Source: Escherichia coli
Lineage (GTDB): Bacteria > Pseudomonadota > Gammaproteobacteria > Enterobacterales > Enterobacteriaceae
Direction: 5' to 3' (one strand)
Assembly (NCBI RefSeq): GCF_003334765.1
Contig: NZ_QOWT01000003.1
Length of the DNA: 64,000 bases
How positions within the stretch are numbered: position 1 is the first letter of the stretch; every line of letters starts with the position of its first letter. Below the pieces are notes generated by a model, which saw nothing but the letters and a program-made list of their open reading frames with translations, did no database searches and was not told the DNA's origin. The translations under genes and the position numbers were made by a program. Below are positions 43,189 through 43,546 of this stretch, one piece after another.

Positions 43189-43261
43189 TAAAAAGGCGCT
43201 GAATGGCGCTTTTTTATGGGAGACCAGAAACAAAAAAACACCCGTTAGGGTGTTCAATAAT

Positions 43262-43338
43262 TGGTTGCGGGGGCCGGATTTGAACCGACGACCTTCGGGT
43301 TATGAGCCCGACGAGCTACCAGGCTGCTCCACCCCGCG
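43262..43338 (-). tRNA. metZ: initiator tRNA-fMet (anticodon CAU), single copy
   Basis: Reverse complement reads CGCGGGGTGGAGCAGCCTGGTAGCTCGTCGGGCTCATAACCCGAAGGTCGTCGGTTCAAATCCGGCCCCCGCAACCA, the initiator tRNA sequence with CCA end. Confidence 0.95.
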
Positions 43339-43351
43339 TCCGTGGATGCGC

Positions 43352-43379
43352 ACTATACTCCGCTCGCGTTTTCATGCAA
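43352..43379 (-). promoter_or_regulatory. near-consensus sigma-70 promoter for the tRNA-fMet gene
   Basis: On the minus strand TTGCAT-16 nt-TATAGT followed by a GC-rich discriminator just upstream of the tRNA 5' end. Confidence 0.55.
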
Positions 43380-43546
43380 CCTTTTTTTTACCCCGATCAC
43401 GGATTTGGCATGATTTTGAACAAAAACAAATCACTAAAGCCTATTTTTTGTGCAAAATTTGCGTCAGGGAGAGGCTGCTCATTTCATTAAACGCGGCGGT
43501 TTGTTATCTTCGTTGCGCCTTATTTTTTAACCTGAAGAAGAGAACA

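Follow-up and report, generated by a model that had tools for sequence, protein, structure and literature searches.

The amiC-mltA interval

The window analysed here, a 64-kb stretch of Escherichia coli DNA, carries one tRNA gene in the interval between amiC and mltA. The left flank is amiC (N-acetylmuramoyl-L-alanine amidase, 41935..43188, plus strand) and the right flank is mltA (murein transglycosylase A, 43547..44644, plus strand); both are in the list of open reading frames and at matching coordinates in the annotation of the near-identical strain BR1220. ARAGORN reports a tRNA-Met gene with anticodon CAT at 43262-43338 on the minus strand as the sole tRNA of the window, and the Rfam tRNA model (RF00005) matches it over its full length (61.4 bits, E=5.6e-12). 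The gene folds into a canonical cloverleaf with a CAU anticodon (ARAGORN places the CAT at position 35) and has the identity elements of an initiator: a C1xA72 mismatch, marked as a non-standard first pair in the Rfam alignment; an anticodon stem with three successive G-C pairs (G29-C41, G30-C40 and G31-C39); and an A11:U24 pair in the D stem (A11 and T24 in the gene). G46 assigns it to the isoacceptor tRNAfMet1, the metZWV type; metY of K-12 encodes tRNAfMet2, which has A46 according to a preprint. The 77-nt gene is 100% identical to K-12 metZ, metW and metV, and by that identity its product would be formylated by Fmt and used in initiation as the K-12 product is.

The tRNA is transcribed away from mltA, which is divergent from its promoter. 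That promoter, assigned at 43352..43389 (minus strand) by identity to K-12, has a -10 element TATAGT (43352-43357), a 16-nt spacer, a -35 element TTGCAT (43374-43379) and, upstream of the -35, an A8 tract (43382-43389). Between the -10 and the mature 5' end lies a short 5' leader with a GC-rich discriminator, GCGCATCCACGGA (43339..43351, minus strand; read from the sequence and identical to K-12). An intrinsic terminator of the tRNA unit, GAACACCC-TAAC-GGGTGTTT followed by a T-run, is found both by a terminator scan and by K-12 identity at 43226..43255 (minus strand), and a separate GC hairpin with a T-run follows amiC at about 43193-43214. In all, the window agrees with K-12 at every base for 208 nt upstream of the tRNA, a stretch that holds the metZWV promoter, and for 73 nt downstream, where the K-12 counterpart lies 3' of metV and holds the terminator. 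The promoter matches consensus at three of six positions in the -35 and five of six in the -10, and a consensus promoter scan of the locus reports no promoter. We call it nonetheless because it is base-for-base identical to the mapped K-12 promoter, not because of the strength of its motifs; the K-12 promoter was located experimentally, and mutations in its -10 sharply lower tRNAfMet (PMC3017606).

The original prediction, made from the sequence alone, described a lone tRNA-fMet on the minus strand of this gap with a strong promoter. ARAGORN, Rfam and the initiator hallmarks agree on the gene and its position; "strong" holds in the sense of identity to the characterised metZWV promoter, but not in the sense of a match to consensus.

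Other small RNA genes in the window lie at their expected K-12 positions: GcvB at 47824-48029 (minus strand, 199 bits), and the tandem OmrA/OmrB genes at 14560-14641 and 14756-14843 (plus strand), of which both copies are kept and which, being diverged from each other, would not be prone to collapse. An Rfam match to the ES036/CssrF sRNA (46.5 bits, with a gathering score of 37.6) lies at 44766-44808 (plus strand) in the spacer between mltA and tcdA. That spacer is 238 nt in the window and in K-12 versus 76 nt in O104:H4 and ST648 records, a size difference that makes the ES036/CssrF element look like a REP-like insertion/deletion polymorphism.

Comparison with the K-12 metZWV array

In K-12, the metZWV operon maps to 63.5 min, with its three tRNAfMet1 genes in tandem in the mltA-amiC gap. 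The original prediction had named this triplet, and it is indeed what K-12 records contain: three tRNA-Met genes at 2947387-2947683 in CJ236, and three copies also in DH10B and in an MG1655 record. (Strain 99-3165 has two.) The K-12 array has a period of 110 bp, made up of a 77-nt tRNA and a 33-nt spacer, and its two spacers, ATTAAAATTTGATGAAGTAAAGCAGTACGGTGA and ATCAAATTTGATGAAGTAAAAGCAGTACGGTGA, differ slightly. The window shares with K-12 the position between amiC and mltA, the divergence from mltA, the promoter, the terminator and the 77-nt tRNA itself; it differs in having one gene instead of three, with both 33-nt spacers absent. The intergenic distance from amiC to mltA is accordingly 358 nt in the window versus 578 nt in K-12, and the difference of 220 nt equals two 110-bp units. 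The loss is exactly in register and leaves no scar, so that the join lies somewhere inside the 77-nt repeat.

Apart from the array, the window is very close to strains that have three copies. Across the 40 kb shared with DH10B there are 10 mismatches and one small gap. The best match among 5426 complete E. coli genomes in RefSeq is BR1220, with 13 mismatches in 50 kb, and it too has one copy.

Array copy number in complete genomes

Copy number at this locus was counted in the same 5426 complete genomes with junction-specific queries and strict E-value limits. Two simpler counts were dropped. Queries spanning whole tRNA units fail because segments hitting the same single tRNA are joined, so that one-copy genomes still score 78-82% coverage; a search with a 1401-nt query returned 226 genomes at 80% coverage or more, a mixture of one-copy and some two-copy arrays.

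At least one junction between a tRNA and an inter-tRNA spacer, the mark of two or more copies, is found in 5194 genomes; at least two adjacent junctions (three or more copies) in 5000; at least three (four or more copies) in 67; and two such places (five or more copies) in 26 of those 67. The contiguous promoter-tRNA-terminator arrangement of the window, which marks a single copy, is found in 109 genomes (2.0%). The distribution is thus one copy in 109, two in about 194 (3.6%), three in about 4933 (91%), four in about 41 and five or more in about 26. The figure of 109 is a lower bound, as a further 123 genomes show neither a spacer junction nor a clean one-copy structure. The comparison that the original prediction had called for, with the same locus in other E. 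coli, shows three copies to be usual. One-copy genomes come from varied backgrounds, including K-12 laboratory strains, O104:H4, O157:H7 Xuzhou21, STEC and ETEC. Each of the one-copy genomes listed has one other initiator-tRNA match, metY, for a total of two genes rather than four.

Two of the 123 unclassified genomes were inspected. In NZ_CP008697.1 (strain ST648, labelled "complete"), at about position 1499, a single N stands in the array's place, directly 5' of the promoter on the mltA side; the annotation shows no initiator tRNA there, and genes of island type (a KpsF/GutQ-type gene and a phosphoglycerate dehydrogenase gene) stand in for amiC. In NZ_CP168949.1 (strain IH5, 2003-2160), the single initiator tRNA is cut to 74 nt, with loss of its 3' CCA, and runs directly into an IS1 terminal repeat and then a piece of yraJ, a structure that indicates rearrangement of the array by IS1. 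At the other extreme, genomes with five or more copies include clinical isolates of about 4.75-4.95 Mb from several projects (e.g. NZ_CP018109.1 MRSN346595 and NZ_CP021879.1 AR_0137); the expansion in this clinical group looks like one inherited within a clone.

A different 3' end is seen in many E. coli-like metagenome contigs (12 loci), where ATTTATTAGAAT... follows the last tRNA copy and replaces both the terminator and amiC. These contigs fit the integration of a genomic island at the array's 3' end, namely the metV island known from extraintestinal strains. One-copy arrays with such a 3' island are left out of the 109.

Age of the array

Species-representative genomes were searched for a pattern of two initiator tRNAs side by side, a search that by design finds only species with at least two copies. 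It returns 99 loci, and in nearly all of those with enough flanking sequence an array of two to three copies lies between amiC and mltA homologues. Such arrays are present in E. albertii (two copies), Salmonella (two copies), Citrobacter, Enterobacter, Klebsiella and Kluyvera, and also in Pectobacterium, Dickeya, Yersinia, Serratia and Edwardsiella. The search shows that the tandem array is old; it is silent on how frequent single copies are in other species. (Outside Enterobacterales, Marinobacter nauticus and Ferrimonas balearica have 5-6 tandem near-identical initiator tRNAs, away from amiC and mltA.)

The original prediction had allowed that the single copy might be an ancestral state, in a lineage that never had the array, with K-12 and others expanding theirs later. 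We reject this as very improbable. Nothing beyond the bare fact of one copy speaks for it, while three or more copies are present in 5000 of 5426 complete E. coli genomes, arrays of two to three copies occupy the amiC-mltA gap across genera of Enterobacterales, and the window is nearly identical to three-copy DH10B, with identical flanks. These results show the window's single copy to be a derived state that goes back to an array of three: the window falls among strains with three copies, because only 10 mismatches in 40 kb separate it from DH10B and the flanks of the array are the same.

Collapse in assembly or contraction in the genome

A real deletion and a collapse during assembly yield exactly the same sequence, and the window itself contains no sign of assembly error. 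We favour, with a probability of roughly 0.57, the reading that the single copy in the sequence record was made by the assembler from a normal three-copy array. As long as k stays below 85, all k-mers of the one-copy sequence also occur in the K-12 locus with its three copies, and the array goes on holding repeated k-mers to about k=91. Up to k=84, reads from a three-copy array would therefore supply all that the one-copy sequence needs; its path is then valid in the graph, so a de Bruijn assembler can walk from promoter to tRNA to terminator and bypass both spacer loops. That assemblers of this kind collapse short tandem repeats is a general case, which may apply to the window's assembly: the unit here has 110 bp, of which 77 nt form a perfect core, and is shorter than or similar to the usual k-mer and read lengths.

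Several observations on other assemblies bear on how often this happens. In short-read metagenomes, 25 E. coli-like contigs contain the metZ promoter and 20 cross the array; eleven of these 20 have one copy, six have two and three have three, whereas in complete genomes the order is reversed (2%, 3.6% and 91%). Within the O104:H4 clone of the 2011 outbreak, isolate C227-11 has three copies versus one in isolate 2011C-3493, and among the genomes from the same 2012 project as the latter, 2009EL-2050 has one and 2009EL-2071 has two. DH10B has three copies versus one in a recent assembly of its parent MC1061, a discordance that later loss in the MC1061 stock would also explain. The one-copy state is concentrated by project as well: the "GF" strains (chicken meat, Switzerland; NZ_CP172134-NZ_CP172224) number at least 13, and one copy is seen in 10 or more of them versus 2% overall, copy number having been read in strains other than GF50, GF60 and GF131. 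The one-copy "GF" genomes differ in size and in flank alleles, and their clustering points to an effect of the pipeline. Other one-copy series that recur are ABW/OW/ESBL_DR, STK/STS, WP, PapRG/PapM and TUM. The discordance within a clone and a pedigree, the clustering by project, the under-count in metagenomes and the N in the "complete" NZ_CP008697.1 are indirect signs that the array often collapses. The assembly of BR1220, which Unicycler built from short reads first (only 24x Illumina, with ONT data; PMC9753673), counts on the same side. None of the RefSeq complete genomes matches the window exactly, so the window may stem from a draft assembly.

The competing reading, that the identical 77-nt repeats really lost two units through unequal exchange between sister chromatids, slippage during replication or single-strand annealing, is a serious one whose odds fall somewhat below even. 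Perfect direct repeats of 77 nt with 33 nt between them are well known to undergo frequent deletion, and the structure of the window is what an in-register deletion between such repeats leaves. Long-read assemblers should easily span a 330-bp array, yet 109 complete genomes of varied backgrounds have one copy; 109 genomes with one copy against 194 with two is also a proportion that direct-repeat deletion could give. Real change in copy number does occur, since collapse cannot create arrays of four or five copies, and 67 genomes have at least four, 26 of them, from several independent projects, at least five; recurrence of the five-copy state in similar clinical genomes from independent projects shows that the array does recombine and that the result is inherited. 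Related species vary too, E. albertii and Salmonella having two copies. Moreover, selection can amplify the tandem metZ-metW initiator tRNA genes of Salmonella (Nilsson et al. 2006, PNAS 103:6976, as cited in PMC7949028). That amplification involves the same locus and the same class of mechanism as a contraction (unequal recombination between tandem tRNA repeats), but it is an expansion, opposite in direction to the change in the window. The selection was reportedly a laboratory one that compensated for a formylation defect. Set against a real contraction are the strong clustering of the one-copy state by sequencing project and the discordance of copy number within an outbreak clone and a laboratory pedigree. 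The "recombinational contraction" of the original prediction is therefore right about the form of the change, one copy being the product of an in-register contraction, but the contraction may be the assembler's own, and collapse is judged somewhat likelier.

Implications for initiator tRNA dosage

If the array collapsed in assembly, the organism would have the usual three genes here plus metY, and the cell would be unaffected. With a real deletion, and a metY copy elsewhere in the genome (it would lie outside the window), initiator genes would fall from four to two, and tRNAfMet to roughly half, an intermediate condition that has already been studied. Levels of tRNAfMet in K-12 track gene copy number (PMC3017606). 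Deletion of metZWV leaves about 25% of the initiator (PMC8248024), slows growth by about 20%, makes cells cold sensitive and lets non-initiator tRNAs initiate (PMC3017606, PMC8248024, PMC11480407), and the fitness effect of low initiator dosage varies with the growth medium (Samhita 2014, J Bacteriol 196:2607, as cited in PMC9981150). The low-dosage strains that serve for comparison (delta-metZWV and the promoter-down D4/D27; Kapoor 2011, PMC3017606) would show the same type of effect as a real deletion, with fewer genes giving proportionally less tRNAfMet. They lose all three genes or most of their transcription, however, and keep about 25% of the tRNAfMet, whereas the window keeps one gene and the full promoter, for an expected dosage of about 50%. 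By extension from these engineered strains, a real deletion is predicted to slow growth modestly in rich medium, perhaps to help the cell in poor medium, and to make the P site somewhat less selective for the initiator.

A bolder proposal, which we hold to be rather improbable, is that the single copy is real and one of many independent and heritable contractions in wild E. coli (about 2% of genomes), which niches with few nutrients and slow growth would favour, with array length acting as a fast tuning knob for the rate and fidelity of initiation that expansion can reverse. Contractions so favoured would be the natural counterpart of the advantage that fewer initiator genes confer in poor media in the laboratory.

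The gene, the array and its copy-number behaviour are all already known. What the locus adds is that an array of 3 x 110 bp is under-counted in many assemblies, some of them labelled complete, and its main value is as a caution against taking tRNA gene counts at this locus at face value unless they have read-level support.
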